Shown here piece after piece: positions 39,473 through 63,979 of a stretch of DNA of 64,000 nucleotides. Location of the stretch: IMG/VR virus record IMGVR_UViG_3300020166_000012, one strand, 5' to 3'. The translations under genes were made by a program, and so were the position numbers. Numbering within the stretch: the stretch's first letter is position 1; each line of letters begins with the position of its first letter. The DNA comes from an uncultured virus (IMG/VR IMGVR_UViG_3300020166_000012) (taxonomy: Duplodnaviria > Heunggongvirae > Uroviricota > Caudoviricetes). Under the pieces are notes generated by a model, which made no database searches, was not told where the DNA came from, and saw nothing but the letters and a program-made list of their open reading frames with translations.

Positions 39473-39712
39473 TTATTGACTACCAAATTCATGGCCGGCC
39501 ACTCGCTTCATTTGTTTATTAAATTCTTCTTGGTCCGGTTTTTTCTTGTATAGCTTAATAGAGATATTATCTTTATCTTTACCTTTAATACGCCATTTCA
39601 TACCATCCGCTTTATGTTCAGCATCAGTTGTTTTTACAACACGACGTTTATAGCCATCTTCCCAGGTTTCGGATCTTCCACCTTCGGCAATAAAAAGCTT
39701 AAATGGTTTCAT
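39473..39712 (-). CDS. putative internal head protein
   Basis: MKPFKLFIAE CTS-like N-terminus. Confidence 0.65.
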   Translation of the reverse strand: MKPFKLFIAEGGRSETWEDGYKRRVVKTTDAEHKADGMKWRIKGKDKDNISIKLYKKKPDQEEFNKQMKRVAGHEFGSQ

Positions 39713-39879
39713 TGGGATAACTCCGTCGTAGTTTCGGTTAATAAAGAAGTCTTAATTTGTAATTCTATTGGATTTGCTTCATTTAATTTAGTAGCGGATT
39801 CATTTGTAGGCTTACACTCACCACAGCAATTATCGGTACCACAATCCGGATGCTCATTCAATTGAGGATTAATTAACAT
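39709..39879 (-). CDS. small Cys-rich protein
   Basis: HPDCGTDNCCGEC. Confidence 0.55.
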   Translation of the reverse strand: MLINPQLNEHPDCGTDNCCGECKPTNESATKLNEANPIELQIKTSLLTETTTELSQ

Positions 39880-40156
39880 TTTTTTTACCCCTATTATCAT
39901 ATTCGCCCATTTTCATAACTTGTTCTTTAGCATACCATTGTGGGCTATATGTTTCATGCCAATCCCACTCGCGTGTTTTTGAATTCCACTCCAATACTTT
40001 CCACTCACCTTTATGACGAATATTTTCATCATATTGTTTTTCAATTTTAAATCTTCTACCGGTAGGAAAAGTAATTTCCTTTTCGCCGTTGGGTCCAGCC
40101 TTTTTCCATTTAGGCAATTTAACAGCTTCTGTTAAATGAGTTTTGAAACTTTTCAT
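39869..40156 (-). CDS. putative internal head protein
   Basis: MKSFKTHLTE CTS-like N-terminus. Confidence 0.65.
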   Translation of the reverse strand: MKSFKTHLTEAVKLPKWKKAGPNGEKEITFPTGRRFKIEKQYDENIRHKGEWKVLEWNSKTREWDWHETYSPQWYAKEQVMKMGEYDNRGKKNVN

Positions 40157-40446
40157 TTCATTAATTCTTTTATAATAGCTAAGGCTTTCTTACCATCAGG
40201 ATGGTTTGGATTTATACTTACTTCATCACCGTTCATAAAATCAGATATATTTGCTGATTTACCTAATGCTGTAATTGCTTTATGTAATGGATCTCTTTTA
40301 TCATATTTAGTTTCAAAATTAGGTTTACCCCGCAATTCAACCCAACTTTTTTCTTTAGTGTCTCTCATTTTTAAAGTATCCTGGCCTATGCCACGAATCA
40401 ATTTAACCATAACACCTTCAGAAATATATGTTTTAAATTTTAGCAT
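40153..40446 (-). CDS. putative internal head protein
   Basis: Reassigned start MLKFKTYISE. Confidence 0.65.
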   Translation of the reverse strand: MLKFKTYISEGVMVKLIRGIGQDTLKMRDTKEKSWVELRGKPNFETKYDKRDPLHKAITALGKSANISDFMNGDEVSINPNHPDGKKALAIIKELMK

Positions 40447-40448
40447 TG

Positions 40449-40754
40449 CTAAATACCCGGTTCTATTATTTTTAAAATTAAAGTGCCGTCGCTGGGACAA
40501 CCCGTAGGAGGTTTGCCCTTTATTAACCTATGATATTCCATTTTTTTTATTTGAAATGTTGTACCTTCTTCCATCATATGAGGAAGAGTATTTTCCATTT
40601 GGAATAACCAACCAGCACTATTATGTACAACAAGAACTAATCTATCTTTTTTATCCCTATGCCAATGTAAATCGCCGCCTTCACAATCATATGCAAAAGT
40701 TCTAAACCATACATTTTCTTCAACAGTTGGGATATCGAAATAAGGAGCTACCAA
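40449..40754 (-). CDS. cupin-like protein
   Basis: LHWHRD...W.FQ...EYHRLIKG; probable TTG start. Confidence 0.6.
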   Translation of the reverse strand: MVAPYFDIPTVEENVWFRTFAYDCEGGDLHWHRDKKDRLVLVVHNSAGWLFQMENTLPHMMEEGTTFQIKKMEYHRLIKGKPPTGCPSDGTLILKIIEPGI

Positions 40755-41284
40755 AAGAAATTTCCACCCCCGCTTAATCCCAGCTGATCGGCATAATATG
40801 GTAATCGACATGCCCAATAACCAGCAGTCATTTTATCGGTTTTTGTATCACATTGATGTCTAGCAGCAAAAGACTTACGAGCTGCCGGATCATCAATTTT
40901 TGCTTTCAATCCTGTGGTATCACCCCATGAAATTTTTTTAATCTTATCAGTTTTAGGATCTTTAACATAAACATAATATTTTTTTGGGCCGCCACGCTTT
41001 GGTTTATTTAATGGCATATCCTGCTCTTTTTCTTCGAGCATTGGTGAATCTAAGGGCACATGCTGATGATTATAAAAAGCAAATTCCCCAATATCGGTTT
41101 GTTCAATCATAAATAAATCGCGGCCAGATAACTCAATATTACCTTCAGCATATTGCTTTCGGGCATCTCTGAAAACTTTATAATAAGATTCTGAGCCAAC
41201 TCTATATAACTCACCAAGAGAAATATTATTTTCTACAACATACGTTAAATTAGTGTCATTTACAAAGTTTTTAAATTTAATCAT
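40748..41284 (-). CDS. putative internal head protein
   Basis: MIKFKNFV start; KKYYVYVK...ARKSFAARHQC...GYWAC. Confidence 0.7.
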   Translation of the reverse strand: MIKFKNFVNDTNLTYVVENNISLGELYRVGSESYYKVFRDARKQYAEGNIELSGRDLFMIEQTDIGEFAFYNHQHVPLDSPMLEEKEQDMPLNKPKRGGPKKYYVYVKDPKTDKIKKISWGDTTGLKAKIDDPAARKSFAARHQCDTKTDKMTAGYWACRLPYYADQLGLSGGGNFFW

Positions 41285-41285
41285 T

Positions 41286-41768
41286 TTATATTAATCCCTT
41301 TGAATCCATAACTAAATATCCTATACCGCCAAATACTCCGATACAAGCAAACATTAATATTAATATAGCTAAAGTATTTAATAAATTTTTACGCATTTCG
41401 GCCTGGCGATATACAGTTTCTTGCCTTTGTTTTGCTATCTTACGACGCATGCGAATTAATTCATCCCAGGCATTTGCTCCATATCTAAACATTAGCATTG
41501 TTCTTAATTCTTTTTCTTGTTCAATTATTTTCTTTTCTTGAATAAGCAATGCTAAAGCTTCTTCTTCAATAGATCCGCTAGCAAATAGCCGTTTAAAAAT
41601 TGGCGGATTTTTTGCTTGTTCTTTTGCAAATCTAAAATCATTTACTGCGCTATACCACTTACCTAATTGCTGAGCAGTATCTTCAAATTCCCTACCAGCC
41701 GCAACCATTCGAGTTACTACATTATATGCAGAGGTAGCCATAGTTATTGCTGATATTGGATCTATCAT
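41286..41768 (-). CDS. membrane-anchored hypothetical protein
   Basis: MIDPISA start, C-terminal TM. Confidence 0.75.
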   Translation of the reverse strand: MIDPISAITMATSAYNVVTRMVAAGREFEDTAQQLGKWYSAVNDFRFAKEQAKNPPIFKRLFASGSIEEEALALLIQEKKIIEQEKELRTMLMFRYGANAWDELIRMRRKIAKQRQETVYRQAEMRKNLLNTLAILILMFACIGVFGGIGYLVMDSKGLI

Positions 41769-42019
41769 TATTCGGTTTCTTTTTTATCTAAAACTGCATA
41801 CATGTCTTTAGCTTTTTCATGAAACCCGCTTAATTTATTTTGCATCCATTCCGGAAATTTTTTATTATTTTGAATATGTTCAGCTACTTCTTTGCCTACA
41901 TATTGAATAAATTCTGCTTGTTGCATAGCCATACCGGCTTCATCTGGGGAAGCCGGTTTATCATCTTCTGGCGCTTCTGTAATAATGCGGAATTCTCTTA
42001 ATTGGGTAAAGGATTTCAT
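41768..42019 (-). CDS. putative internal head protein
   Basis: MKSFTQLRE; PEWMQNKL. Confidence 0.65.
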   Translation of the reverse strand: MKSFTQLREFRIITEAPEDDKPASPDEAGMAMQQAEFIQYVGKEVAEHIQNNKKFPEWMQNKLSGFHEKAKDMYAVLDKKETE

Positions 42020-42020
42020 T

Positions 42021-44879
42021 TTATTTTACCTTACTCATTGCAAAATCCATCATTTTCATAAACCTGGTTTCGTCTTTGTTAATTGCGTCAGCAAACTTTT
42101 TCTTGTTTGCATCGTTCAACGAGTCATGCACCTTTACCATTGCAGATGCAGTGAACATATCAACTTTTGTCTTTGAACCAGAAGCAAATTTAACAGCTCC
42201 GGCCGACTTTGTGTTTACGATTTTACGAAGATCATCGATAACGCCTTCTGATACAACTTCTACATAATCTTTATTACTAGGTAATTTGCCTTTATTAAGA
42301 CCATTTTTAGCTTTATGTTTATCAAATGTGGGTTTAATACCACGCTTTTTAGCATTCTTTTCAGCTTTATCGATATCAACCATATGCTTAGCATAACCCT
42401 TCTTAAACATTTTAGGGTCAGATTTTTTATGTTCATCGTCATTTTTTGATTGCTTTTTATTACGCCAATCAATAAATTTTTTGCCGGACATTGCTGCGGC
42501 CCGATCACTGGAGGTATATTTACCGCCAAATAGACCTTTATTATCTTTGTATTTAGCACTGGTACCAGCAGCCTCTTCTAGCGGATTAGTAAAGCTATCG
42601 GCCTTTAAGCGGCCAATAATACGTCCACCCCCATCTGTAACAATAAAATCGCCGTTATCAGCAATACGAGAAGTTGTTCCGGCTTTTGCTCTTTTACCAC
42701 CAAGAGCCTTTGTCATTAGGGCCTTTACTGCTCTTTCTTTTACGCCTTCATCAAGTTCAATTTCTTCATTACGTATATTTTTCTGAAATGCTTTGTATTC
42801 TTTGCGGCGGTCTGCGTCTTTATCTAATAAAGAAAGAATTTTTTCACGTGGCTCTGTGTCTAAGTCATCGACAAACTTCTTCAGTTGTGCTGTTTGACCT
42901 TTCTTCATCATCATAGCAGCTTTTATAAAGTCCATCTTATCAATGCCGCCATGTTTACGGGCATAATCTTCAAGTTCTTTTGCAACACGTGACATTGTAG
43001 CTTCATCAAGATTCGATTCTCTTATTGAGGCTTTGTACAATTCTAAACCTTTAGAATATGCTGGGTTTTTCATCATTCGCTTTGACTCAGCATCATCTGG
43101 ATTTTGATGAGCCATGCGAACTGTTGGTTCGTCTAATTTATTGGCTTTCATATGCTTTTTATATGCATCAAACTTTTTAGAATCTACTGCTGGACCAAAT
43201 CTGTTTCTCATCGGCGTGGTTGTTTCATTAACAGATTCAGCAAGCTTCCAACCCTTTGCAAGATATTCTTTTTGTTTAGTCTTATCAATAACAATAGTTT
43301 TGCCGGCTTTATCTACAACCATGACTTCGGTTTTAGGATTTTTTAACTGCCGAGCCTCCTCAACAGATTCGGTAAATTCAACTGGAACAAGGATGGATCC
43401 TTTAGACCCACCATTAACCATCATCATTTCATCACCTTTACGAGCAATTTTAAAATCTTTGTGAATTTTTTTAAAGTTAGCTTTTGAAATATAAACTTTA
43501 TTATTTTTTACTTCATAATCGCGATCCCGTAAAACGGCTTCGTCAAGCGATTCAAATTGCATAGTATGTTGGCCACTGCCACGAACCTTTTCGGCTGCGG
43601 CTTTAGATGAATATGGGGCACCTTGATTAACAAATTTGCCACCAGAAAACTTTTGAACCTGAAACCCGGATTTTGCTTTAGCGCCGGCTCTGTTATCAGG
43701 GTGGGCATTCGACAAATCTATAATACGGATTTGACCGGTTTTAGCTTCAGAAATAGCCTCATCGCCCTTATCGGTTTCGCTGTTTATATTTTGTTTAAAT
43801 TTATTCCAATTATAATCGCGGATAATTTTTAAGATTGCATCTCTATTACTAGAACGCTTGTCAATATATTTACCAACAATGACATCAATAGACATTTTGG
43901 CTTCAAGATCTTTAATAATCTTTTTAGCTGGTAATTTAGCTTCATCTACATATTCAATACCTTCTTTCATATCGATAAGACTTGCACCTAAATCGCCAAT
44001 AGCAAAGGTAATTTTACCGTCCTTTTTTCTACGTAAGAAAGATTTAACACCACCAGATTTTGCTTGAAGAGTAATTTTTTCTTGTTCGGAAGGCTTACCT
44101 TTTAAAACGGTTGTTTTTGATAAAACTTTATATTCGACAAAATCTCCACCTTTAGATAACGTTGAATCAAATTTAATTTTTACATTATCATTTTTCTTTA
44201 ACTTATCGAAAATAGCAGAATGTTTGTCGGTCATTTCAGTTAATCCTTTAATTTGTGTAATTTCTGTGGTAGCTTCTGCCATTGCAGGCTTTTCAATCAT
44301 ATACATTTGTACAGATTCCGTTGGAACAATTCCACCACTTTTCCATACTTTTGGGGCAATAAGAACTCGCGGTCCTCTTAATTCTTTTACAATATAATCC
44401 ATTTTAGCTTCGGCTGGTCCGTCAGCGTATTTCTTTTTTAAACGAACAGTATCACCTTTTTTAATTTCGGTTTTTGCTTCATAAGCTGGGCCACGCTTTG
44501 GTGATCCTGGATTTGGCTGTTTTAAATTTTTACGAAGTGCTGCAAGATCATTTTTAAGCTTGCTTATCTTAAAAGATTTCATAACATTTGAATTGCCAGA
44601 TTTTGTTATAGCATTTTTTGTTAATTGCATAGACTCTTCGGTATTTTCTTTACGTGACATAGATTTATCCATTTTATCGGCCGCGGAATTGAATAGTTTA
44701 GTATAAGTTTTTTCATTTTCGGCGGCCGAAGGCATTGCCATCATAACATCATCATTAACAAGATCCCAATTAATTGAACCATCTTTATTATAATTAGCCT
44801 TATCTTTTAAAGACTTTTTTATGTGTTTTTCAATATTAGATTTATTAAGAGAAGCCTCTTGCAAATTACGATTTTCCAT
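42021..44879 (-). CDS. 952-aa modular polyprotein-like late protein
   Basis: GAGG RBS before MENRNLQE; basic modules separated by acidic xxE linkers. Confidence 0.8.
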   Translation of the reverse strand: MENRNLQEASLNKSNIEKHIKKSLKDKANYNKDGSINWDLVNDDVMMAMPSAAENEKTYTKLFNSAADKMDKSMSRKENTEESMQLTKNAITKSGNSNVMKSFKISKLKNDLAALRKNLKQPNPGSPKRGPAYEAKTEIKKGDTVRLKKKYADGPAEAKMDYIVKELRGPRVLIAPKVWKSGGIVPTESVQMYMIEKPAMAEATTEITQIKGLTEMTDKHSAIFDKLKKNDNVKIKFDSTLSKGGDFVEYKVLSKTTVLKGKPSEQEKITLQAKSGGVKSFLRRKKDGKITFAIGDLGASLIDMKEGIEYVDEAKLPAKKIIKDLEAKMSIDVIVGKYIDKRSSNRDAILKIIRDYNWNKFKQNINSETDKGDEAISEAKTGQIRIIDLSNAHPDNRAGAKAKSGFQVQKFSGGKFVNQGAPYSSKAAAEKVRGSGQHTMQFESLDEAVLRDRDYEVKNNKVYISKANFKKIHKDFKIARKGDEMMMVNGGSKGSILVPVEFTESVEEARQLKNPKTEVMVVDKAGKTIVIDKTKQKEYLAKGWKLAESVNETTTPMRNRFGPAVDSKKFDAYKKHMKANKLDEPTVRMAHQNPDDAESKRMMKNPAYSKGLELYKASIRESNLDEATMSRVAKELEDYARKHGGIDKMDFIKAAMMMKKGQTAQLKKFVDDLDTEPREKILSLLDKDADRRKEYKAFQKNIRNEEIELDEGVKERAVKALMTKALGGKRAKAGTTSRIADNGDFIVTDGGGRIIGRLKADSFTNPLEEAAGTSAKYKDNKGLFGGKYTSSDRAAAMSGKKFIDWRNKKQSKNDDEHKKSDPKMFKKGYAKHMVDIDKAEKNAKKRGIKPTFDKHKAKNGLNKGKLPSNKDYVEVVSEGVIDDLRKIVNTKSAGAVKFASGSKTKVDMFTASAMVKVHDSLNDANKKKFADAINKDETRFMKMMDFAMSKVK

Positions 44880-45357
44880 TGTAACCTCTACCGATTGATT
44901 TACGGAATTGTTTAACACCAACTCTATCAGACATGTCTTGGCCCTTTTCACGCTTACGAATAGTTTCTTTTTCTTTTGAAATTTCAGGATTGCCGCGAAG
45001 AAGTTTAGCTGTTGCAGTATTACGAGCCTTATCACTTTTCATTTTAGCTTTTTTTCTATAGCTATCCAATGCGCCTGGACGATCTAGAACTTCATCAATA
45101 GTCTCTTCATTCTTGCCTCTTACTTTATCCGCTAAATCTTTATCGGCTTTGCCCCATGTGCCCGGAGATTTTGTAGTAAACGAATTAACCCTAGCAAATC
45201 CCCATTGTTCAGGAGTGGTTCCAGGTCTATGACCGGTTTTCCAAGCCGCTACACCGCGGTTATATACACTACGTAAAACACTTAATGGCATTCCAGATTT
45301 TTCCGCTTTATTTTTAAGTGCTTTAGTATTTTCATTAAATTGTTTAAAAGTTTTCAT
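44866..45357 (-). CDS. putative internal head protein
   Basis: MKTFKQFNE; VYNRG.AAW.TGHRPG...W..ARVNSF. Confidence 0.7.
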   Translation of the reverse strand: MKTFKQFNENTKALKNKAEKSGMPLSVLRSVYNRGVAAWKTGHRPGTTPEQWGFARVNSFTTKSPGTWGKADKDLADKVRGKNEETIDEVLDRPGALDSYRKKAKMKSDKARNTATAKLLRGNPEISKEKETIRKREKGQDMSDRVGVKQFRKSIGRGYNGKS

Positions 45358-46556
45358 GGCTTTGTCGATCTATTTGTTGAACGTGTTTGTAAAGTTCGCG
45401 CGCGATCTCGCATTGCATCAAATTTGATTTTATCTGCTCTTTTTTCTCTATTAATTCTATCATTTACTTTATCAATATAATCAATTTCTTCGTCGGTATC
45501 GCCAAACATTTGTGCAAATCGTTTAGTGTGCTTACTTGGCTTAGTTTTTGCAGTGGCATCGCCTGGTGCTTTTTTATAAGCATCGGGATTATTATCAGCC
45601 TTTTTAGCATTCTTTTTAAAATGTTGGTCTCTAGCAATTTTTGTAGACTTGTTCTTTATTCCAGCAAAATACTTTTTAGGCTGCGCTCCATCACGGTCCG
45701 CAATATCGGGATCTTGGGTAGTAGTTGTTTTTTCTTCAATTTTTTCAATTCTATCAAGCCATTGTCTAGATTTTCCGGATGAAGTTTCAACAATTACATA
45801 ATTTGGGCCAAGTGTTGCAATAATACCAACCTCGCTTGTTTCAGTAATAATAATTTCTTCGCCTATAGAATACAAATCACCCTTTACATATTGCTCTCTA
45901 ATATCAGAAATAGATTCTAATTGAATGTGACGTTTAAATTCGGTTTCTTCTTTTAATCCCATGCCTTTACGCACATCATTAAAAAGTTTTTTTGCATCAG
46001 AATTACTCATTGAAGTAGGAAGACCTTCATAAAATTTTGTGAAATTATTCTCTGCGGCAAATTTACGCTGCTTAGTTCCAGACGCACCGTCTGGCCCATC
46101 GCTATCAGCATCTCGCATACCGGCCGATATTACCTGAACCCCACCATTAAAATTATAAAATCCGTGAGTAGAATCAACTCCATTATATTTATTTAATCTA
46201 ATTTTATATTCATCCACTCTATCACTACCAGCTACCATAATAACTTTACGGAAACCCTGATCATAAAGATAAGCTAATGCAAAAAAAGGATTAATAATTT
46301 TTTTATTAATTAAAATATTGCGGGCATGTTTTGGAAACATTTTTCGCACATGCTTTACCTTGTCCGCATATTTCAAAGGATTATCTTTTTTATCCTGAGA
46401 TTGAGATAAAAAGATTTTATACGGCAAACGGCCAGCGGTTTGCGCTAGTTTATTTAATAATTTACCATGACCAACAGTAGGCGGATTTAATCTACCAAAA
46501 GTAAAATATACTATTTGGTCTTCTTCAATAATATATTGTTTAAAAGAATTAACCAT
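45354..46556 (-). CDS. HxGH-type nucleotidyltransferase (phage 'cytidyltransferase') with C-terminal extension
   Basis: FGRLNPPTVGH, VAGSDR, SGTKQR; CTS-like start. Confidence 0.85.
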   Translation of the reverse strand: MVNSFKQYIIEEDQIVYFTFGRLNPPTVGHGKLLNKLAQTAGRLPYKIFLSQSQDKKDNPLKYADKVKHVRKMFPKHARNILINKKIINPFFALAYLYDQGFRKVIMVAGSDRVDEYKIRLNKYNGVDSTHGFYNFNGGVQVISAGMRDADSDGPDGASGTKQRKFAAENNFTKFYEGLPTSMSNSDAKKLFNDVRKGMGLKEETEFKRHIQLESISDIREQYVKGDLYSIGEEIIITETSEVGIIATLGPNYVIVETSSGKSRQWLDRIEKIEEKTTTTQDPDIADRDGAQPKKYFAGIKNKSTKIARDQHFKKNAKKADNNPDAYKKAPGDATAKTKPSKHTKRFAQMFGDTDEEIDYIDKVNDRINREKRADKIKFDAMRDRARTLQTRSTNRSTKP

Positions 46557-46995
46557 TTTTAGATTGTGCCTTATGCTGTTTTCTATCTTTTTCAGCTTGA
46601 CGCATTTTTGGAAGCAATTTTACAGCAATGCGATCTATTCTTGAGCCCATTTTCTCAAGCCGTTTTTCTAATTCCATTTTACGAGCAACTGACATATCAC
46701 TTTTCGGAATATCTTTTGTAAGTTTTTTAAGAATAATATTACGGGCTGCTTTACGTGCACGTTTTTTTAACACATCTTTATTGGCAGTACGACGTGCGGC
46801 GCGGTTGCGCCCCATTTTTAATTTAGCTTTATTACGTTTCATACTACGGCCGCGAGCTAATCGCTGTTGAATATTGAGAGCCTCATCTGGGCCACCACTA
46901 CCGCCGGTTCTTTTTGTTCTATGTGCTTGATGTTGAACTTCGTCTGGTTCTCCATCACGCATATCTACAACTCTTAGATCTTTAAATCTAATCAT
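46549..46995 (-). CDS. basic hypothetical protein
   Basis: R/K-rich; DE-ALNIQQR. Confidence 0.7.
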   Translation of the reverse strand: MIRFKDLRVVDMRDGEPDEVQHQAHRTKRTGGSGGPDEALNIQQRLARGRSMKRNKAKLKMGRNRAARRTANKDVLKKRARKAARNIILKKLTKDIPKSDMSVARKMELEKRLEKMGSRIDRIAVKLLPKMRQAEKDRKQHKAQSKNG

Positions 46996-48224
46996 TAACT
47001 TCTCCCTGGCTTATCCCATCCTTTAATAATATCTGGCGAAAAGTTGTTGTATGAAAATTCTAATCTATCAACAATCTTTACAGCGTCACTACCCAGTCTA
47101 TCAATTGCTACATAACCTTCTTGACCCGTTGTTTTAAAACCATTTTTAGTTTTTACAAAAGTCTTTACTTTATTTATCCTATCAAGTATATTTATAAGTT
47201 TTAATTTCGCTAAGACAATAACTTTCTGCAATTCGAACATAGTTATCAAATTATTTTTATTATTAGCCGAAAAAAATGATAAAATATCATTCAGTTTATC
47301 TTGTTTGCGCCCCTTACCTTTTTCAGTTTTAAGCTTATCCATTTCTTTTTGGAATTTTGCTTCAATAAATTTAATAAGTGCCGTTACTCTTTTGGCTGGA
47401 TCCGGGGGCATTTGGCCTGCCCGTACATAAGAATTTGAATGTTGCTCTATTAATTGTGTTAAATCAGTATTAGCTTCTAAGGTGCGTAAAACGCCCCCCG
47501 AAATTTTATTAAATAATTTTCCAGCTTGAGTTAAATAGTCATTTACTATATCGGAATCAGACTTATTCATAGTAAGATTTGTCATATCACGAAGCATAGC
47601 ATCTTGCGACCAAACATTTTTTGATTTTTTAAGACGAGAAACATTAACACCATATGAAGCTTTCATAGTTTCAAATGTATTACCTTTATATGTAGTATGC
47701 CAAACAATACCAATTTTAGATGCTAAAATTTCTTTTGATGATACTGTATTAGCTGGTACAGCATAAACAATAGTATTTGGATGGAAGGTGATATATTTTT
47801 CACCAGCAATAGTTTCATTACTAAGATCGCCTGGGCCGTATAAAAAATCGCCCTGAATAACTTCAGTAATTCCCAATTCGGGTAAATATTGTAAGGCTTG
47901 CTTAAGCTTTATAGCTAAATCGCCTGAAGTATCTGCATCTACCTCACCTGGAGTTTTATATACTTTTGGATTTTTATTAAAAATACCCTTTTTAGCAACA
48001 AAAAATTTGCCATCAGCTGGATCAATGCCAGCAAATACTGCTGGTGCTCCATCCCATTTAACAGATATTTTCCCGTCATGTTCGCCCTTTAACATATTAC
48101 GCAATTCGCGCAAAGCCATAATAGCTTGACGAGTACCATTAACACCACCATAAATCACCTTATCTTCAAGGTGTGTCATGTGAGTATTTTTGTTTTCAGC
48201 AATGAAAGATTTAAAGTTTTCCAT
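46995..48224 (-). CDS. ligase-like nucleotidyltransferase-fold protein
   Basis: SVKWDGAP (KxDG), QGD, EGYV, KIVDRLEFS; MENFKSFIAE start. Confidence 0.7.
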   Translation of the reverse strand: MENFKSFIAENKNTHMTHLEDKVIYGGVNGTRQAIMALRELRNMLKGEHDGKISVKWDGAPAVFAGIDPADGKFFVAKKGIFNKNPKVYKTPGEVDADTSGDLAIKLKQALQYLPELGITEVIQGDFLYGPGDLSNETIAGEKYITFHPNTIVYAVPANTVSSKEILASKIGIVWHTTYKGNTFETMKASYGVNVSRLKKSKNVWSQDAMLRDMTNLTMNKSDSDIVNDYLTQAGKLFNKISGGVLRTLEANTDLTQLIEQHSNSYVRAGQMPPDPAKRVTALIKFIEAKFQKEMDKLKTEKGKGRKQDKLNDILSFFSANNKNNLITMFELQKVIVLAKLKLINILDRINKVKTFVKTKNGFKTTGQEGYVAIDRLGSDAVKIVDRLEFSYNNFSPDIIKGWDKPGRS

Positions 48225-48256
48225 ATTTTAAATATTATCCGTATTATAATGTATGT

Positions 48257-49045
48257 TTAATTGTTTATTAGTATAAGATCAAAAGAAGCATTTACTTCTG
48301 TTTGTTGAGCAGCAACAGCATCTACACGAATATCACTTTTTTCTGCAAATACTAATGGTATTGGGTATTCAATAAATGTGTTTTGCCCGCCGGCTGCGAA
48401 ATATGTTCCTTTATTTCGGAAAATTCCGCCATCTTGAAAAGTTCTTTGTCTTAGTGTGTATTTCATAGCCGAATTAGTACTAGCCTTTGATGAACCAAAT
48501 CTTAATGAAAGCATATAAGCAGTTTTACCAGCGGGTACTGTATAAATAGCCATTAAGGTTTGAGCTTCATTTGCAGTAATCTGCGCGGCGGTTGTGGCTC
48601 CAATACTAATAATAACGTTAGCATCATTATTAATATCAACCATATATGCTCTATAAACTCTAAGAAAAGTTTTTACCCCAGTTGAACCAATAGGAATAGT
48701 TTCACTTTGATCATTATAATTTTCATCTAATCCTTGAATAAAAACACTCGCACCAGAATTTTGTGTTGAAACAACAGAAATTACAGATGGAACAGTCGGA
48801 AATACATAAGTACTGCTTCCAGTATTACCGTCCCAAATACTGCCTGCTGTTATATCGCCCGGAGTAGCACCAAATTTATTAATATGATTATAATTAGCAA
48901 TTAAACCGGCTGCAAGTGGAATATTACCAACATTTCCATTGCCGTTAAGTATATTACCATTTTTATCAGCCATCATAATCACTTCATGAATATCATTATT
49001 TCCAGCATGAAGTGGATTTTGTCTACTAACGCTATACTGTGCCAT
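48257..49045 (-). CDS. beta-rich putative virion protein
   Basis: INKFG, IQGLDENY, YTVPAGKTAY. Confidence 0.6.
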   Translation of the reverse strand: MAQYSVSRQNPLHAGNNDIHEVIMMADKNGNILNGNGNVGNIPLAAGLIANYNHINKFGATPGDITAGSIWDGNTGSSTYVFPTVPSVISVVSTQNSGASVFIQGLDENYNDQSETIPIGSTGVKTFLRVYRAYMVDINNDANVIISIGATTAAQITANEAQTLMAIYTVPAGKTAYMLSLRFGSSKASTNSAMKYTLRQRTFQDGGIFRNKGTYFAAGGQNTFIEYPIPLVFAEKSDIRVDAVAAQQTEVNASFDLILINN

Positions 49046-49059
49046 TTATAATTCCCTCT

Positions 49060-49812
49060 TTACATTTTTACCCTAGGTTTAATTGTGCCAGAAGTTATTC
49101 TTTCTAAGATAATATCTTTCTTTTGAACCAGTTTAATTTCAATAAGGTCCCCAAGAGAAAATCCGGCGCCAGTTTTATTAGCTAAAAAAATAATTTTATG
49201 ATTTTTAAAATAATTTTTATAACTTAGATCTACAAATTCATCTTCAAGGTCTTTAAGCTGCGCCGGAAATTGTTTTCTTATTATATCAAGTTGTCCGCTA
49301 TTAACTTCGGATCCACTTCCTAATCCAGCATCTTTTTTTAAATCTTGAATCCCGCGAATAATTTCAGCAATAGAAAATGTTCCCCCAATTTTAAAATTAT
49401 TAACATATTTACCATTAGCCGAATAATCAACAGCTTTAACTTCAAAGCTTCCTGCTGCATCCACAATATCAACTCCGGCCGAAGAGCCTCCACCCAAATG
49501 TCCATTATTCAAAATAAAATATAGCATAACTTCACCGGGTCCTACCCCTTTAATATTATACTTATATAATGCTTCGAAGTTACGGATATCTATATTCCGT
49601 GCAGTTTTAATTGCTTTTTTAAGAGCTGACGCAGTAATTCGATCTATATGAACATCATTGCTATTATTAAATTTTGGAAAAAAATGTAAATGAAAAAGAT
49701 GTTGAATTTCTTTTTTATAAGTCAAAGATTCAAAATCTTTTGCAATTAAATTAAATGAGGTCCGTACCATAGCTCTATTAAGAAACTCGGAATTTAATTG
49801 ACTAGTATCCAT
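49060..49812 (-). CDS. putative PD-(D/E)XK-like protein
   Basis: GPGE...GVDI...FEVK. Confidence 0.5.
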   Translation of the reverse strand: MDTSQLNSEFLNRAMVRTSFNLIAKDFESLTYKKEIQHLFHLHFFPKFNNSNDVHIDRITASALKKAIKTARNIDIRNFEALYKYNIKGVGPGEVMLYFILNNGHLGGGSSAGVDIVDAAGSFEVKAVDYSANGKYVNNFKIGGTFSIAEIIRGIQDLKKDAGLGSGSEVNSGQLDIIRKQFPAQLKDLEDEFVDLSYKNYFKNHKIIFLANKTGAGFSLGDLIEIKLVQKKDIILERITSGTIKPRVKM

Positions 49813-49843
49813 TATTTTTTTCCACTAATAAACTTATTAGTAT

Positions 49844-49851
49844 TATTTATA
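49844..49851 (-). promoter_or_regulatory. late promoter TATAAATA heading the internal-protein operon
   Basis: Exact motif about 30 nt upstream of the 49812 start. Confidence 0.7.
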
Positions 49852-49863
49852 TAAAAAAATATT

Positions 49864-49903
49864 ATAAAGCCCCCAATACTTAATGTGTTGGGGGCTTTTA
49901 TTT
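49864..49903 (-). terminator. intrinsic terminator (possibly bidirectional)
   Basis: AAAGCCCCCAA...TTGGGGGCTTT. Confidence 0.75.
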
Positions 49904-50230
49904 TTAGGTTTTTTCATAAATATAAAGATCAAGTCTTTCTGCAAACTCAAGCGGTATTGAGCAACGCACTCGAGATTTTACAAATCGTACAAGATCAGAT
50001 TCGCTAATATATGGATGTTTATTTGCATAATAGTCTTTAACTTTTTCATAGCGATTTTTTGTGCGGCCTTGCAATTTTACATAAAAACGCTGTGTAGCAC
50101 CATGACGAGCTAAATCTTTATTCATAGTAATTACCATGTTACGAATATCTGCAATTCTTTTTGAATCTTCGGCGGTTTTTTCAAAAGTTCCAATATAAGA
50201 ATCCGAATATCTTTTATTTACTACTTGCAT
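49904..50230 (-). CDS. hypothetical early protein
   Basis: YVKLQGR...DLYIY. Confidence 0.7.
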   Translation of the reverse strand: MQVVNKRYSDSYIGTFEKTAEDSKRIADIRNMVITMNKDLARHGATQRFYVKLQGRTKNRYEKVKDYYANKHPYISESDLVRFVKSRVRCSIPLEFAERLDLYIYEKT

Positions 50231-50397
50231 GATTTCATTACTCCGCTTTTAACTGATGGTACAAACATGTCATAGTATTTTAAGTGAAGCTCTTTTGCAC
50301 ATTCTTCACTAATATATTCCCAACGCTCAGTTTCCTGAGTTTGCCAATTCATTATTGCTTCTACATACCACATTGCGCTATCCTTATTTGCTTTCAT
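50221..50397 (-). CDS. small early protein
   Basis: GAGG RBS and early promoter at 50408-50437. Confidence 0.55.
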   Translation of the reverse strand: MKANKDSAMWYVEAIMNWQTQETERWEYISEECAKELHLKYYDMFVPSVKSGVMKSCK

Positions 50398-50502
50398 TTT
50401 ATACCTCTTTATAGCATAGTTTAAAACGAATGTAAACCCCCTAAACACAATTAATTAATTAATTTTTAAAAAAACTTATAAAATGCGTTATTTTAGTGGC
50501 AT

Positions 50503-50691
50503 TTATTGAAATACACCCAATATTCTTAGTTTAACATTCTGAATATGGGTGCACTGTTTGCGAGGGTTCTTTTTACATGAACACGAAAAGCCATTATCAT
50601 GCATAGTAACAATACCTTTGGCATATTGCCATTTAGTACCGACCATCCAATGATTTACAGTATTAATTGAACCTGTTGAAAAAATTGTCAT
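50503..50691 (-). CDS. SWIM-like Zn-finger small protein
   Basis: FSCSC...CTHI. Confidence 0.6.
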   Translation of the reverse strand: MTIFSTGSINTVNHWMVGTKWQYAKGIVTMHDNGFSCSCKKNPRKQCTHIQNVKLRILGVFQ

Positions 50692-50693
50692 TC

Positions 50694-50864
50694 TTATGCT
50701 ACACCACTTACTACATCTACTGCATATTGAACTTCTTGTTGAAATTCAGTTTCGGTAGCTTCAGAAAAATCAAAACCGGAATACTCCATTTCATCTTGAA
50801 TGAGCCGCGCAAAAGCTTGATTACAATCAAGGATAGACATGATTTGTTTTGTATAATAATTCAT
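50694..50864 (-). CDS. 56-aa early protein (not in the ORF track)
   Basis: MNYYTKQIMSIL...FDFSEAT; early promoter at 50903-50932. Confidence 0.65.
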   Translation of the reverse strand: MNYYTKQIMSILDCNQAFARLIQDEMEYSGFDFSEATETEFQQEVQYAVDVVSGVA

Positions 50865-50960
50865 AATGATTCTTCCCTTTGCTTCATTTCATTGTATATA
50901 CATTTATAACATAAAAGAAAGAAAATGTACACACTTTTTTTACTTTTTTATCTTCGTTTG

Positions 50961-51116
50961 AAACTATTTTATACATACGCCCGAGCTAGTATCTCCAATC
51001 TCCCCGCACGGCCTTATTGACATTGCCGCTCTGGTTCGATCGAAACTAACATCCCTTTCGAGATAGTGCTTTTAGCTGATCAACGCCTCTACACAGACGT
51101 ATGTATGAAATAGTTT
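50961..51116 (-). ncRNA. structured ncRNA candidate 1
   Basis: 19-bp closing stem with one mismatch; internal ATCTC-GAAA-GGGAT and GCGGC/GCCGT helices. Confidence 0.6.
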
Positions 51117-51127
51117 TCCTTGTCTTA

Positions 51128-51249
51128 GACTCTTTGCTGATTATATAGTGGTCTTAACTTAGTCCCTTACCAGGATTTTACGGGTTCTGCTCCATGGGCA
51201 TACCTACCTTTACGGTTCTTCGCTCGTACTATATAATCAGAAAAGAGTC
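51128..51249 (-). ncRNA. structured ncRNA candidate 2
   Basis: About 22-bp closing stem GACTCTTT.CTGATTATATAGT / ACTATATAATCAG.AAAGAGTC with internal hairpins. Confidence 0.6.
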
Positions 51250-51265
51250 CTTTGTTTTAGTTTCC

Positions 51266-51472
51266 TTATGCGAAGTGGTTATCAACAAGCACACTAATGC
51301 AATCATTCAGATACTCAGTATCATAGAAGACTCCAAGTGGAATAAAGATATCAGACTCAACAAAGTTCCAATTGATACCGCCACCTTCGTGGATATTTTC
51401 TGGATTAACCACCGCAGCATTGAAAGCTTCGATAATGTCATTCTTAATCATTGCGCCATAAGTAGTAAGCAT
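51266..51472 (-). CDS. early protein, INW-motif family (paralog of 63689-63979)
   Basis: IKND..EAFN.A...EN....INW.FVE.D. Confidence 0.75.
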   Translation of the reverse strand: MLTTYGAMIKNDIIEAFNAAVVNPENIHEGGGINWNFVESDIFIPLGVFYDTEYLNDCISVLVDNHFA

Positions 51473-51552
51473 AGTGTTTCCCCTTTTGATATATTAGTTA
51501 TATCATATTAAGATCTGATTGTAAACCCCTAAAATGCATTTTTTTTATTTTT

Positions 51553-51717
51553 TTATACCAAACCAAATTGGCTAAAAAGTACTACCATTGCAATAACACC
51601 AACGAGGGCCCAGGCAAGAATAGTAAGTTCCCCTTCTGGAGATTTAGGAGTCTCAACAAACATACTACTAACTCCACTGAAAAGTACAGCGCCAATTATA
51701 CTAGCAACTAATGTCAT
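51553..51717 (-). CDS. 54-aa two-TM protein (not in the ORF track)
   Basis: MTLVASIIGAVLF...LAWALVGVIAMVVLF. Confidence 0.6.
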   Translation of the reverse strand: MTLVASIIGAVLFSGVSSMFVETPKSPEGELTILAWALVGVIAMVVLFSQFGLV

Positions 51718-51718
51718 A

Positions 51719-51901
51719 TTAAGCTCCATCATCCATTTCTAATTCATATTCAATAAACTCTGCTTCTACCTTGCAGTCAGGATATTCCCGGTCAAGATAC
51801 CGAAGCTCTTCAGAAGTTGCATAACCAGAGTATTCTTCTCCTGTATGAACAATTTCCCCAGCTTTGTTAGTAACTGTGAGTTTATAAAATCTTTTCCACA
51901 T
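51719..51901 (-). CDS. small early protein
   Basis: AGGAG RBS and early promoter. Confidence 0.65.
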   Translation of the reverse strand: MWKRFYKLTVTNKAGEIVHTGEEYSGYATSEELRYLDREYPDCKVEAEFIEYELEMDDGA

Positions 51902-51993
51902 TGTGTATCTCCTTTTGATATATTAGTTATACCATGTAGAGATCTGATTGTAAACCCCTAAAGTGCATTTTTTTATTTAATGTGATATATTTG

Positions 51994-52251
51994 TTATGCC
52001 ACCTCATAGCCTATTACAGTTTCTACATATCCATTACCATACTCTTCAGCAATCGCCAATAGGATCTGCTCACGTGGTTCTGTATCCATATTACCGATTT
52101 TTGCTAAAGCGCCGTCAATGTCATTCGAATTCATCAGCCACTGCACCTGCTTAAAATCAGCCGTATCGGCCAGATATAGATCAGCAAGGCCTGCATCTTG
52201 TGCTTCTAAGCTATAGCTGAATGTTTGATCGATAAGTTTTTGAATAGTCAT
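51994..52251 (-). CDS. early protein, DTEPRE-motif family
   Basis: AGGAG RBS; promoter at 52281-52310. Confidence 0.75.
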   Translation of the reverse strand: MTIQKLIDQTFSYSLEAQDAGLADLYLADTADFKQVQWLMNSNDIDGALAKIGNMDTEPREQILLAIAEEYGNGYVETVIGYEVA

Positions 52252-52358
52252 GATAGGCTCCTTTGTTTCATTCTATATTAGTTATACCATATAATAAAGA
52301 GAATGTAAATAAAAAAGATGCCCCAAAGGACATCTTTTTCTTTAATGTGATATATTTG

Positions 52359-53336
52359 TTATGCTGCTGTTGCCATTTGAACGGCCAAATTTGCAGCCTT
52401 TATTTTGCGCAACCGATTATTACCGAACCATTGATTGTGTAACCGATTTTCAGCTCCTCGTCCTTGAAGATGGTCAGTGACATATGTTACTGAATTAAAT
52501 GCCTGCCACCATGTTCCAGCACCAAATTCTGCGCCAGGTTGAATTTCAAGCATATCATATGCGGTTTGCGCATTGCGGCTTAAATCTTCTTTTTTTGTCA
52601 CCGTTGTTTCAATATCTTTGCGCGAAGTAGATGGAAATACTTGGCTATAGTACTGAATAAGTGAATCAGCAGTAAAACGACGGCCGCCTAAAAATTGAGC
52701 CATATCTTTATACTGAGTAAATTTTTCAGAAGCAAGCCCCAATGTTGTTTTCACATCATCAGCATTAAACACTGTGCGATGGCCAACTTTAACAGAACGC
52801 TCAGCGTGGCTGTTCAAGCTAAATGTAAGAGTATTATTACAAACAACACGAATAGGAGTAAATCGAATATCAATTGATTTACCATATTGATGAGGATTTG
52901 AAAACAACAAATATGATTCAACGGTATCTTCTTTACCAAATACATCAAACGACTCTTTAATTTTTGCAAGAGCCCACACTTGTTGACCGCCTTTTAGCGA
53001 ACCGGCAGTGTGCATTTCCATATCACCGGCCGCAACATATTCAGCAAAGAAATTAAAGGCTTCTTCATTTTGGACTGGATTCCAATTTTCGCCAACATTA
53101 GTAAGAACTTTTCCATCAGTTGAGCGAATAAGGGCTTGTTGACCAGTGGCAACATTATCGCCCTTCCAACGGACAAAAGCATCTACCTTTTCAACTTCCC
53201 AATCAAGACCAGCTTTTTGCATCATTTGCATAGGTGTAAGATCATTTGATACCGAAACACCTAAACCATGCCATGGCAATTCGCCTGCATAAGCCATCTG
53301 TGCTACACCGTTTACAATTTCTACCTCATGTGCCAT
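52359..53336 (-). CDS. DUF932-family protein
   Basis: PWHGLG, AGLDWEV, QNEEAF, TPIRVVCNNT, WWQAFNSVT. Confidence 0.9.
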   Translation of the reverse strand: MAHEVEIVNGVAQMAYAGELPWHGLGVSVSNDLTPMQMMQKAGLDWEVEKVDAFVRWKGDNVATGQQALIRSTDGKVLTNVGENWNPVQNEEAFNFFAEYVAAGDMEMHTAGSLKGGQQVWALAKIKESFDVFGKEDTVESYLLFSNPHQYGKSIDIRFTPIRVVCNNTLTFSLNSHAERSVKVGHRTVFNADDVKTTLGLASEKFTQYKDMAQFLGGRRFTADSLIQYYSQVFPSTSRKDIETTVTKKEDLSRNAQTAYDMLEIQPGAEFGAGTWWQAFNSVTYVTDHLQGRGAENRLHNQWFGNNRLRKIKAANLAVQMATAA

Positions 53337-54883: not shown

Positions 54884-55081
54884 TTATTTTTTTATAGCTG
54901 TTTTTTTCTTAAGTGCTTTTCGTTTTGCAAGAGCTTCTTTCATTTCCTCGAGCGGATTTGCTTTTGCTGCTTTAATTGCACTAAATTTGCCTGTTCCGGC
55001 TTCTGTGGACTTTGCTTGTTGTTTATTATAAAATCCAGCATTTTTAATTCTTTGACTCATATCACCTTTAGGTTTTGGCAT
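54884..55081 (-). CDS. small basic protein
   Basis: GGAG RBS, K-rich. Confidence 0.6.
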   Translation of the reverse strand: MPKPKGDMSQRIKNAGFYNKQQAKSTEAGTGKFSAIKAAKANPLEEMKEALAKRKALKKKTAIKK

Positions 55082-55128
55082 TTATATTCTCCATTTTATT
55101 AGCCTATATTTTATATATAAATATTTTT

Positions 55129-55644
55129 ATGAAGCATATATTTTTTATTATAATTTTCTTATTCAGTACAGGCTGTTCCATATTTAATACATTGGGGCAA
55201 CAGCCAAAACATACTATAAATCTTACTGAAGCGATTTATTATGTTGGTCTTAATGAAAATATAGATCGTGTTCAATTAAAAAGATTTTTAAATGTTGACC
55301 CGGTTACAACTGAGTGGTGCGCAGCATTTATCAATGCGGTTTTAGCTAGAAATAATATATCAAACCTACACGATTTTAATTCTAAACGACCATTATTAGC
55401 ACAAGAATTTTTAAATTACGGAGAAATAATTCTTGAAGAAGAATTGCGGTATGGCGATATTATAATAATAGAGCGCGACGGCGCAAAATGGCAAGGTCAT
55501 GTTGGATTTTTTATGGGAATTCGGCATTCTCGAGGGCAAAAATATTATTTACTTTTGGGTGGTAATCAAAATAATAAAGTTAGTATTACCCCATATTCAT
55601 CAAAGAAATTAATTGGAATGCGAAGATATTCTAATTATAAATAA
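55129..55644 (+). CDS. TIGR02594/NlpC-P60-like lipoprotein peptidoglycan hydrolase
   Basis: Lipobox STGC, WCAAFIN, GHVGF, LGGNQ; TATAAATA at 55116-55123. Confidence 0.85.
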   Translation: MKHIFFIIIFLFSTGCSIFNTLGQQPKHTINLTEAIYYVGLNENIDRVQLKRFLNVDPVTTEWCAAFINAVLARNNISNLHDFNSKRPLLAQEFLNYGEIILEEELRYGDIIIIERDGAKWQGHVGFFMGIRHSRGQKYYLLLGGNQNNKVSITPYSSKKLIGMRRYSNYK

Positions 55645-55672
55645 AACTATATAAGCAATTAATGAGAATCTA

Positions 55673-56440
55673 ATGTATACTTTTAAATCATTTATAAGCG
55701 AAAGCGCTAAATCAGATAAGTATGAAAATGATATGGCTAAACACATTGCCGATATGGGTTTAGACGCATCTCGTCCAGCCGTTGATCCAACATATTCAGA
55801 TATTCTTATTAAATATAAAGGCGATCGCATATGGTTAGAAGTTAAAATGAATCACTCTGACCAACTTGGCAATACTCGCGCTAGTTTTGACGGTAAAAAA
55901 TGGATTGCCGCAATTGATAAAAAAGGCCCTAGTAAGGGTAAATTATCTCCTCTTAAAGCATATATTACTAAAACCTTAAATAACGATAAAGATACTCAAG
56001 CATGGTTAAAAGATCTTGAAAAGTTTTCCGGAATAAAGGGTATGAAAGTACCCACATTAATTTCTGGATTGAGTGATCCAAAATCCGTTCCACGTGATGT
56101 AATGATTGCATATTTAAAAGGTAAAAAACAATATATTTTAAATAAACCTGAAGTAGATTTGGGCGAGTTAATTACTCAGCATTATCTTAAAGGGAAATCC
56201 GAGCCAGCATATTATATGCAAGCCGGCGATGATTTCTATAGAATTGGTTCTGCAAATCCAATGGGCGTTCCTAATGATGTTCCATTACTCTCTGGCACTG
56301 GCCCATTCAAAATGCGCATTGGTATGCGGTCAAAGTATTATGAGGTGCAGCCCGAGGTTAAAATTACTAAAATGCCGAGCAGTAAGTATTCCTTAAAGCC
56401 CGGCACTAGTAAATTAAACCCATTTGAAAATATCAAATAA
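55673..56440 (+). CDS. PD-(D/E)XK-like nuclease with CTS-like N-terminus
   Basis: MYTFKSFISE; YE...SDI...WLEVK; TATAAATA at 55636-55643. Confidence 0.65.
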   Translation: MYTFKSFISESAKSDKYENDMAKHIADMGLDASRPAVDPTYSDILIKYKGDRIWLEVKMNHSDQLGNTRASFDGKKWIAAIDKKGPSKGKLSPLKAYITKTLNNDKDTQAWLKDLEKFSGIKGMKVPTLISGLSDPKSVPRDVMIAYLKGKKQYILNKPEVDLGELITQHYLKGKSEPAYYMQAGDDFYRIGSANPMGVPNDVPLLSGTGPFKMRIGMRSKYYEVQPEVKITKMPSSKYSLKPGTSKLNPFENIK

Positions 56441-63688: not shown

Positions 63689-63979
63689 TTATACTCCCAA
63701 ATAATCGGTTTTTAGAATTTCGAGTTGCCCAATAGCGTTTGGATAACGAGTGAGTAAATTTTCAGTATTGTCTAGCAAGTCGTCACGTAAAACATCTAAG
63801 CAGTCTATGATATATGATCGGGTATATACAAAACATTCATTGTACATATCAGCTTCAACAAAAGCCCAATTGATTTTGTTATTATAATCAAAATTCTCGC
63901 GAAGAAAAATCGCGGTATTAAAAGCTTCGACTACATCATTTTTGATGGCCGAACCATTTGCTAGATGATAGATTGTCAT
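63689..63979 (-). CDS. INW-motif family protein (paralog of 51266-51472)
   Basis: IKNDVVEAFN.A...EN....INWAFVEAD. Confidence 0.75.
   Translation of the reverse strand: MTIYHLANGSAIKNDVVEAFNTAIFLRENFDYNNKINWAFVEADMYNECFVYTRSYIIDCLDVLRDDLLDNTENLLTRYPNAIGQLEILKTDYLGV

Follow-up and report, generated by a model that had tools for sequence, protein, structure and literature searches.

The 64,000-nucleotide (nt) stretch analysed here (the window) belongs to an uncultured marine virus of the Caudoviricetes and carries genes of a T4-like phage, namely those for a single-strand binding protein, a late-promoter regulator, ribonucleotide reductase, PhoH, and a cytidyltransferase. We are concerned with two of its minus-strand genes, a long polyprotein gene and a small stand-alone gene, which share a domain that we call DTEPRE after its central hexapeptide. 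Our sequence comparisons confirm that the polyprotein module at 42747-43001 and the open reading frame (ORF) at 51994-52251 are true homologues. The features at issue are as follows.

42021 to 44879, minus strand: polyprotein of 952 amino acids (aa), net charge +59, in which acidic (L/I/V)-x-E linkers connect about 13 small modules; putative cargo of the prohead core (from sequence)
43002 to 43019, minus strand: upstream linker ESNLDE, predicted head-protease site (by the L/I-X-E rule, available text of PMC9026906)
42747 to 43001, minus strand: DTEPRE module, residues 627-711, downstream linker included (from sequence, BLASTP, profile, and model)
42816 to 43001, minus strand: segment of the module that has homology to the stand-alone family and covers helices 1-4 (from profile and model)
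42765 to 42815, minus strand: basic RRKEY tail in place of helix 5, a separate mobile piece (from the context survey)
42747 to 42767, minus strand: downstream linker EEIELDE, predicted head-protease site (from sequence)
51994 to 52251, minus strand: stand-alone DTEPRE-family gene, 85 aa, isoelectric point 4.05, five predicted helices (from sequence and model)
52281 to 52309, minus strand: TTTACA-17-TATAAC, the early-type promoter ahead of the stand-alone gene, lying in a 36-nt repeat that is present four times (from sequence)
52311 to 52340, minus strand: hairpin of 13 pairs resembling an intrinsic terminator, just upstream of the DTEPRE promoter (from sequence)

Homology of the module and the stand-alone protein

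The initial annotation had matched a peptide of the polyprotein to one of the early ORF; both peptides were found on the minus strand at the two genes, and the module does lie between LDE linkers (..ESNLDE and ..EEIELDE). The last 23 residues of the span given to the module are not homologous to the stand-alone protein. Pairwise BLASTP of module and early ORF yielded 12/36 identities in an ungapped alignment (E 3e-5, single comparison). Alignment of the two profiles covered 74 columns with a probability of 99.0% and E 3e-18, values that are partly circular because the module rows were chosen by the motif. The similarity extends past the hexapeptide: with DTEPRE masked, only 4/2000 shuffles (close-family profile) and 1/2000 (broad profile) equalled the module, and the unmasked module scored 29.5 bits against 14.2 for the best shuffle.

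An unbiased test was provided by a profile of 68 stand-alone proteins, which was run against 1.84 billion proteins and retrieved 98 of them at E<=1e-3. Sixteen of these are linker-type polyproteins, matched at profile positions ~23-84. The 22 hits longer than 135 aa consist of the 16 polyproteins, 2 two-copy proteins (P0247 and P0257), 3 single-domain proteins with extensions, and a repetitive false positive (P0232), which was dropped. The stand-alone protein has 107 relatives 47-91 aa long (among 109 candidates), and the module has 66 (among 156 candidates) within proteins of 253-1172 aa. Residues conserved in both groups include D29, D32, F33, M/L55, D56, T57, P59, R60, E61, and G72; within the motif this conservation is partly circular, as the rows were anchored on it. 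Furthermore, full-length modules have the downstream glycine and the C-terminal pattern of the stand-alone proteins.

The AlphaFold2 model of the stand-alone protein has helices at 3-16, 20-41, 45-53, 57-71, and 73-80 (predicted local distance difference test score, pLDDT, 94), and that of the module at 5-17, 19-33, 37-46, and 50-83 (pLDDT 76). Comparison of helix positions between these independent models shows the helices in register: with a shift of 8 residues, the ends of stand-alone helices 20-41, 45-53, and 57-71 fall on those of module helices 19-33, 37-46, and the one from 50. A chance likeness, or convergence on a helix-capping motif, might be argued from the short pairwise match and from the weakness of the window module alone at database scale. 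That explanation is largely refuted by the database-scale profile hits, the profile-profile match, the helices in register, the masked shuffles, and the shared glycine and C-terminal pattern, and we give it hardly any credence.

The polyprotein and its modules

The likeliest start of the polyprotein is the ATG at 44879 (952 aa, matching database protein P0111), not the GTG of a 1004-aa frame. Its linker pattern, which was defined only after the sequence had been inspected, occurs 8 times, compared with a mean of 0.94 and a maximum of 7 in 2000 shuffles. The T4 head protease cleaves behind L/I-X-E (PMC9026906, available text). The modules are of folded-domain size, without internal cleavage sites, and carry net charges of +2 to +15, the DTEPRE module having net charge 0 when the acidic linker is counted. 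The polyprotein had no PHROG match and no Pfam match above cut-off, hence no known enzyme domain was found, and the conflict enzymes and marker domains of polyvalent proteins (ART, MPTase, MuF, SWI2/SNF2, others) did not turn up in the same Pfam and PHROG searches. Capsid targeting was judged on the 10 N-terminal residues, with positions 4, 7, 8, and 10 taken as important; neighbouring genes have aromatic residues at positions 4 and 7, and several related carriers show the typical shape of a targeting sequence.

A survey of 100 dereplicated contexts from 170 long proteins supported the module boundaries at the family level. The (L/I/V)-x-E pattern was found 44-56 residues before the motif in 85/95 contexts (background 0.21) and 14-44 residues after it in 85/97 (background 0.43). 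The flanks are diverse: the 88 upstream flanks fall into 50 clusters and the 90 downstream flanks into 49. These patterns mark the DTEPRE module as a real, shuffled cassette. The RRKEY tail occurs in 27/100 contexts; 3 proteins carry it away from the domain, and at locus L071 an RRKEY piece lies upstream of a full module. The module is also present in polyproteins with a P-loop kinase domain (PF06414/PF13671), often together with DUF5824 (P0119, P0129-P0133, P0141, P0144, P0146, P0147, P0149, and P0150). P0247 and P0257 each hold two DTEPRE copies, with K-x-GG-like joints in the former and M-E-S-x-E joints in the latter, and their branching apart from the marine modules hints at independent captures into other cargo systems.

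Late gene run and head-gene context

The polyprotein belongs to a tightly packed gene run headed by the following site.

49844 to 49851, minus strand: late-promoter-type site TATAAATA, preceding the gene run 49812-42021, polyprotein included

We take TATAAATA to be a T4-type late promoter; a second such site lies within the run at 47196. Genes of this run and its surroundings at 46995, 39869, and 39473 start with ten-residue peptides that have F at position 4 and end in (I/L)-x-E, and similar ten-residue starts are found at 45354, 41768, and 55673+. The interval 39473-48224 of the window is thus probably a whole cluster of head cargo. Elsewhere, two genes at 55075-56440 lie on the plus strand of a window otherwise read from the minus strand, where TATAAATA occurs at 55116 and at 55636; of the two genes, one resembles a tail-lysozyme domain family.

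The head genes themselves were taken from record G010, which matches the window at 99.3-99.9% identity across the 20 kb compared and was treated as the same phage. It contributes the genes for portal, head protease, scaffold, and major capsid protein. The protease is of the T4 gp21 type (PF03420, E 2e-42), and the major capsid protein, which has L/I-x-E sites close to its N-terminus, is 66% identical to that of phage C48C1, 61% to that of Melnitz, and 60% to that of HTVC008M. In related loci, the carrier gene (the gene that holds the module) follows the portal gene immediately in 4/44 cases, and at L055 it lies between portal and head protease. A cytidyltransferase-like protein shares the open frame of the carrier in 13/44 module loci (not dereplicated), and a putative cytidylyltransferase has been detected in S-SM1 virions (PMC3037559, available text). 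At L258 a short propeptide-like start is followed at once by a divergent module, and L255 holds a 104-aa single-module gene of cargo type. The late run, the head-gene neighbours, and the protease-type linkers together support a late head-cargo context for the polyprotein. Part of the region 42500-52400 was present in 10 metatranscriptome runs (word matching over the region, not per gene), and four runs of one study held 0.83-0.84 of its words.

The same evidence bears on another reading, that the polyprotein serves as a scaffold-like part of the core, its fragments being degraded or lost from the head before DNA packaging, with nothing injected. In T4, cleavage turns the core proteins gp22 and gp67 into numerous fragments, most of which leave the head (PMC9026906, available text), and the L055 carrier occupies a core-gene position. 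Against this, the phage has a separate small core gene of T4 type, highly acidic in its product (L112:6159-6422), and the modules are domain-sized, basic, without internal sites, and freely exchanged. We therefore consider such a role improbable.

Early-type genes and their promoters

The stand-alone gene had been described as expressed from an early promoter, and the family bears out an early-type promoter in sequence. A relaxed promoter pattern lies within 90 nt of 25/27 distinct stand-alone genes, compared with 2% of shuffles and 0/22 polyprotein genes. A generic promoter scan misses the site at 52281-52309, as it requires T at the sixth position of the -10 element; that scan gave no clear regional excess of promoters (14 versus 9.6, standard deviation 3.3). 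At L025-L030 the major capsid gene is followed after ~140-200 nt by the stand-alone DTEPRE gene, which has an early-type promoter of its own.

The early-gene region of the window is, by its repeats, an interchangeable cassette array. A 44-nt tail, 89% identical, is common to the ends of the DUF932 and DTEPRE genes (51956-51999 and 52321-52364), and a block of 76 nt with promoter and ribosome site is common to two neighbouring early genes (51470-51545 and 51899-51974). A functional link with DUF932 was not adopted: that gene lies less than 3 kb away in only 8/43 stand-alone loci, three of them from this phage.

Divergence of the two forms

In a quick, unrooted tree of 112 rows, 25 marine modules group together (Shimodaira-Hasegawa-like approximate likelihood ratio test, SH-aLRT, 93), apart from the early gene of the window. 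A recent duplication within the genome was rejected: a clade of the two window copies failed the approximately unbiased (AU) test at p=1.4e-5 (28 hand-picked rows, LG+G4). On this evidence the two copies are old paralogues. It is conceivable that the domain began as virion cargo and that the early genes derive from it, as the tree has no root and there are cargo-type genes with a single module, such as that of L255. However, diversity is far greater among the stand-alone forms (84 rows at 62% dereplication) than among the modules, 25 of which fall into the one group. The module of the second family described below was seen in this phage only, as opposed to 50 distinct stand-alone relatives. 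We hold the reversed direction to be very improbable.

The two forms also differ in charge. Over a 60-residue core, the median charge is -10 in 168 stand-alone proteins versus +2 in 64 modules, and over 43 shared columns the charge goes from -4.1 to +0.6; for the window copies, the net charge is -11 in the stand-alone protein and 0 in the module. The ratio of nonsynonymous to synonymous substitution rates (dN/dS) among modules has a median of 0.05 (30 pairs), and of 0.14 against the window module (21 pairs), which indicates that the modules are under strong purifying selection. The stand-alone median (0.35) was inflated by ungapped anchoring and was set aside. The module is ~90% identical in loci whose neighbouring module is only 45-54% identical, and several of its acidic residues are nearly invariant. 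Thus, the earlier claim that one domain is used twice stands as far as the family is concerned, and it has to be amended in that the copies are old paralogues of different charge, the module is without a fifth helix, and co-occurrence of the two is not obligatory.

A second pair, the INWNFV family

Splitting the polyprotein at its linkers revealed a match of its first module, residues 9-79, to short proteins, which we call the INWNFV family. Its members in the window are the following.

44643 to 44855, minus strand: first polyprotein module, residues 9-79, INWNFV homologue (from profile)
51266 to 51472, minus strand: stand-alone INWNFV gene, 68 aa, net charge -9, with its own early-type promoter at 51497-51525 (from sequence and profile)
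63689 to 63979, minus strand: second stand-alone INWNFV gene, 96 aa, net charge -8 (from profile)

When 3584 proteins were searched with a profile of 12 stand-alone members, the module was recovered at E 8e-6, the next unrelated match being at 0.56, and the module scores 29.8 bits versus 10.7 for the best shuffle. None of the 12 profile members came from the locus scan queried with this module, and two of them first surfaced when the linker-split modules were matched. Pairwise BLASTP between the module and ORF 51266 gave no match, so the link runs through the profile and intermediates only. The family comprises 212 stretches of viral contigs, of which 80 were kept, amounting to 50 distinct proteins; an acidic core is present in 50/50 of these and an early-type promoter in 38. 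The fused form was observed in this phage only. Searches of 13 members against Pfam and PHROG gave no family above cut-off and one weak match each. The motif N-x-N-x-D-G-S-I-N presumably resembles an EF-hand-type calcium-binding loop, without the usual acidic residue at position 12.

The charge shifts here from -9 and -8 in the stand-alone proteins to +2 in the module, again a loss of acidity. This shift favours an alternative in which the captured module is packaged and cut and becomes a small internal protein, stable and basic, that neutralises DNA, fills the core, or aids ejection, its early job having been lost. Both captured families lose acidity and every other module is basic, as are the T4 internal proteins, which bind DNA at low salt (PMC9026906, available text). 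Helix 5 is dispensable in the modules, and conservation outside the motif is uncorrelated between the two DTEPRE groups (Spearman 0.21, p=0.13). On the other hand, the module is more conserved than its neighbours and its acidic residues are nearly invariant, neither of which a filler needs. This repurposing is the main rival explanation, although less likely than not.

Fold, family, and literature searches

Among 79 DTEPRE family members, none reached the Pfam cut-off; 3/79 weakly matched PF03448 (MgtE_N; best E 0.002). The window module scored 15.7 bits against PF03448 (cut-off 25.9), FliG was matched at E 1.1, and MgtE_N and FliG were not among the top fold matches. The best fold match of the stand-alone model was a designed protein (Z 7.2, root-mean-square deviation (rmsd) 2.4, 71 aligned residues), and that of the module model had Z 6.7 (rmsd 3.4, 76 aligned); as far as the models go, both scores are within the generic range of helical bundles. 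Foldseek against BFVD and the PDB gave nothing at E<=0.001, the best E of a PDB sequence search was 0.1, and the ESM Atlas offered one unnamed cluster at 0.76 and no usable match. One narrow peptide pattern had no match in 185,579 prokaryote genomes. Acidic DNA-mimic inhibitors of the Ocr and Arn type bind DNA-binding enzymes through acidic surfaces whose spacing imitates that of DNA phosphates; the stand-alone forms are acidic and the module is not, and no fold match was obtained. Homology to IPI, IPII, IPIII, or Alt was not found in PHROGs, Pfam, PDB sequences, or the fold searches, at a level that leaves room for remote kinship. Our literature search, which covered few subscription journals and no supplements, found no account of the DTEPRE or INWNFV families or of head-protease-jointed polyproteins with early twins.

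Discussion

We propose that DTEPRE may be an old and diverse family of small, acidic, helical early proteins in T4-like phages. One copy would have been captured long ago into linker-joined head-cargo polyproteins and then moved among them as a cassette. The early gene would be read from its own promoter by host RNA polymerase. The late polyprotein would be incorporated in the prohead core, where a gp21-type protease would cleave behind the (L/I/V)-x-E linkers, and the module of ~9 kDa would be retained in the head and enter the cell alongside the DNA. The lysines added to the module may suit the surroundings of packaged DNA. Since D29, D32, F33, and the (M/L)-D-T-x-P-R-E cluster are kept in both groups, the two forms most likely have one kind of host protein as their common binding partner, and would bind it in host takeover or counter-defence, the module at time zero and the other after early transcription. 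The INWNFV family would have gone the same way as a second case of capture. The sequences themselves show the homology, the module boundaries, the shuffling, the contrast in promoters, the setting among head genes, the constraint, and the change of charge, whereas packaging, cutting, ejection, and the common target are steps that we infer. Taken as a whole, from captured early host-interaction proteins through head cargo and protease release to entry with the DNA and a target of the same kind, the proposal seems to us to have about an even chance of being right.

Several observations weigh against it. The conserved cluster may be purely structural because D56 sits at the start of helix 4, and the charge shift would abolish any acidic-mimic function in the module. 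The window module is without helix 5 and the conserved glycine; because this shortened copy scores only ~26 bits on the stand-alone profile, insignificant at database scale, it is linked to the family through its full-length relatives. The conservation outside the motif, uncorrelated as given above, points the same way. Both forms were present together in 3 of the 20 records searched, which are mostly fragments and one of which is this phage; three records reach a completeness of 90% or more, of which one carries both forms and two carry the module only. The polyprotein starts with MENRNLQE, eight residues that end in L-Q-E and are without F4 and F7. The strict promoter pattern was found for 1/27 stand-alone genes, and the pattern was relaxed thereafter. 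The other 11/13 modules are without a short homologue in the local set of 3584 proteins, a weak negative. Finally, neither the module nor the stand-alone protein had a PHROG or Pfam family above cut-off, which gives no target, and seven queries of cultured phages returned a best E of 0.3-0.9 or no match.

A wider generalisation can be entertained only tentatively, and we think it somewhat doubtful: marine T4-like phages may repeatedly capture acidic early host-takeover proteins from their early-gene cassettes into protease-jointed head polyproteins, re-surface them with lysines to allow packing next to DNA, and inject working, pre-made copies. If so, the polyproteins would supply the early arsenal from time zero, and each module that has an early twin would point to a new family active in host takeover or counter-defence; the present gene alone would yield two. 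Were the two forms to share a host target, the early twin, being easy to express, would give a way of studying injected modules that are otherwise inaccessible, and the change from acidic to basic would be a testable rule for adapting proteins to capsid delivery. Irrespective of this, our study names two widespread, unannotated families, DTEPRE (107 stand-alone clusters, 290 long proteins) and INWNFV (212 stretches), and shows a source from which modules of head-cargo polyproteins can be drawn.

The T4 proteins ModA and ModB are expressed early. Their paralogue Alt is injected, and ModA and ModB are not, according to the available text of PMC5512222. The present case is alike in that paralogous domains are divided between one form packaged and injected and others made in the cell, the packaging being what we would expect of the module. 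Unlike it, Alt is a whole ADP-ribosyltransferase with terminal propeptides, whereas DTEPRE and INWNFV are helical domains of 70-85 aa, embedded in a chain of roughly a dozen modules that are unrelated to one another, and neither sequence nor fold connects them with Alt. IPI, IPII, and IPIII of T4 are likewise small basic proteins freed by cutting after L/I-X-E (PMC9026906, available text), a cut that is predicted here. They are, however, single genes, each with its own propeptide, whereas here many modules share a chain with an atypical targeting start.

A comparable protein of a cultured phage is QZI94753.1 (462 aa, L349:3647-5035) of Methylophilales phage Melnitz, an unannotated linker-joined polyprotein of an OM43 phage. 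It has the same linker style and two other stretches in common with the window polyprotein (41% and 29% identity); it differs in that no match to the DTEPRE module was found in the phage collection, and it is annotated as hypothetical. Polyvalent proteins are also multi-domain virion proteins, assembled from domains that occur solo as well and acting at invasion (Iyer et al. 2017, PMC5512222, available text), and two modules of our polyprotein, DTEPRE and INWNFV, do have solo relatives. In contrast, the polyvalent proteins have recognisable enzymatic domains and a proposed release by embedded peptidases (PMC5512222, available text), whereas the joints seen here fit a separate head protease. 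The general logic therefore has precedent in Alt/Mod and in the polyvalent proteins, which limits the surprise of our findings, and we place the polyprotein beside these two classes, assigning it to neither.

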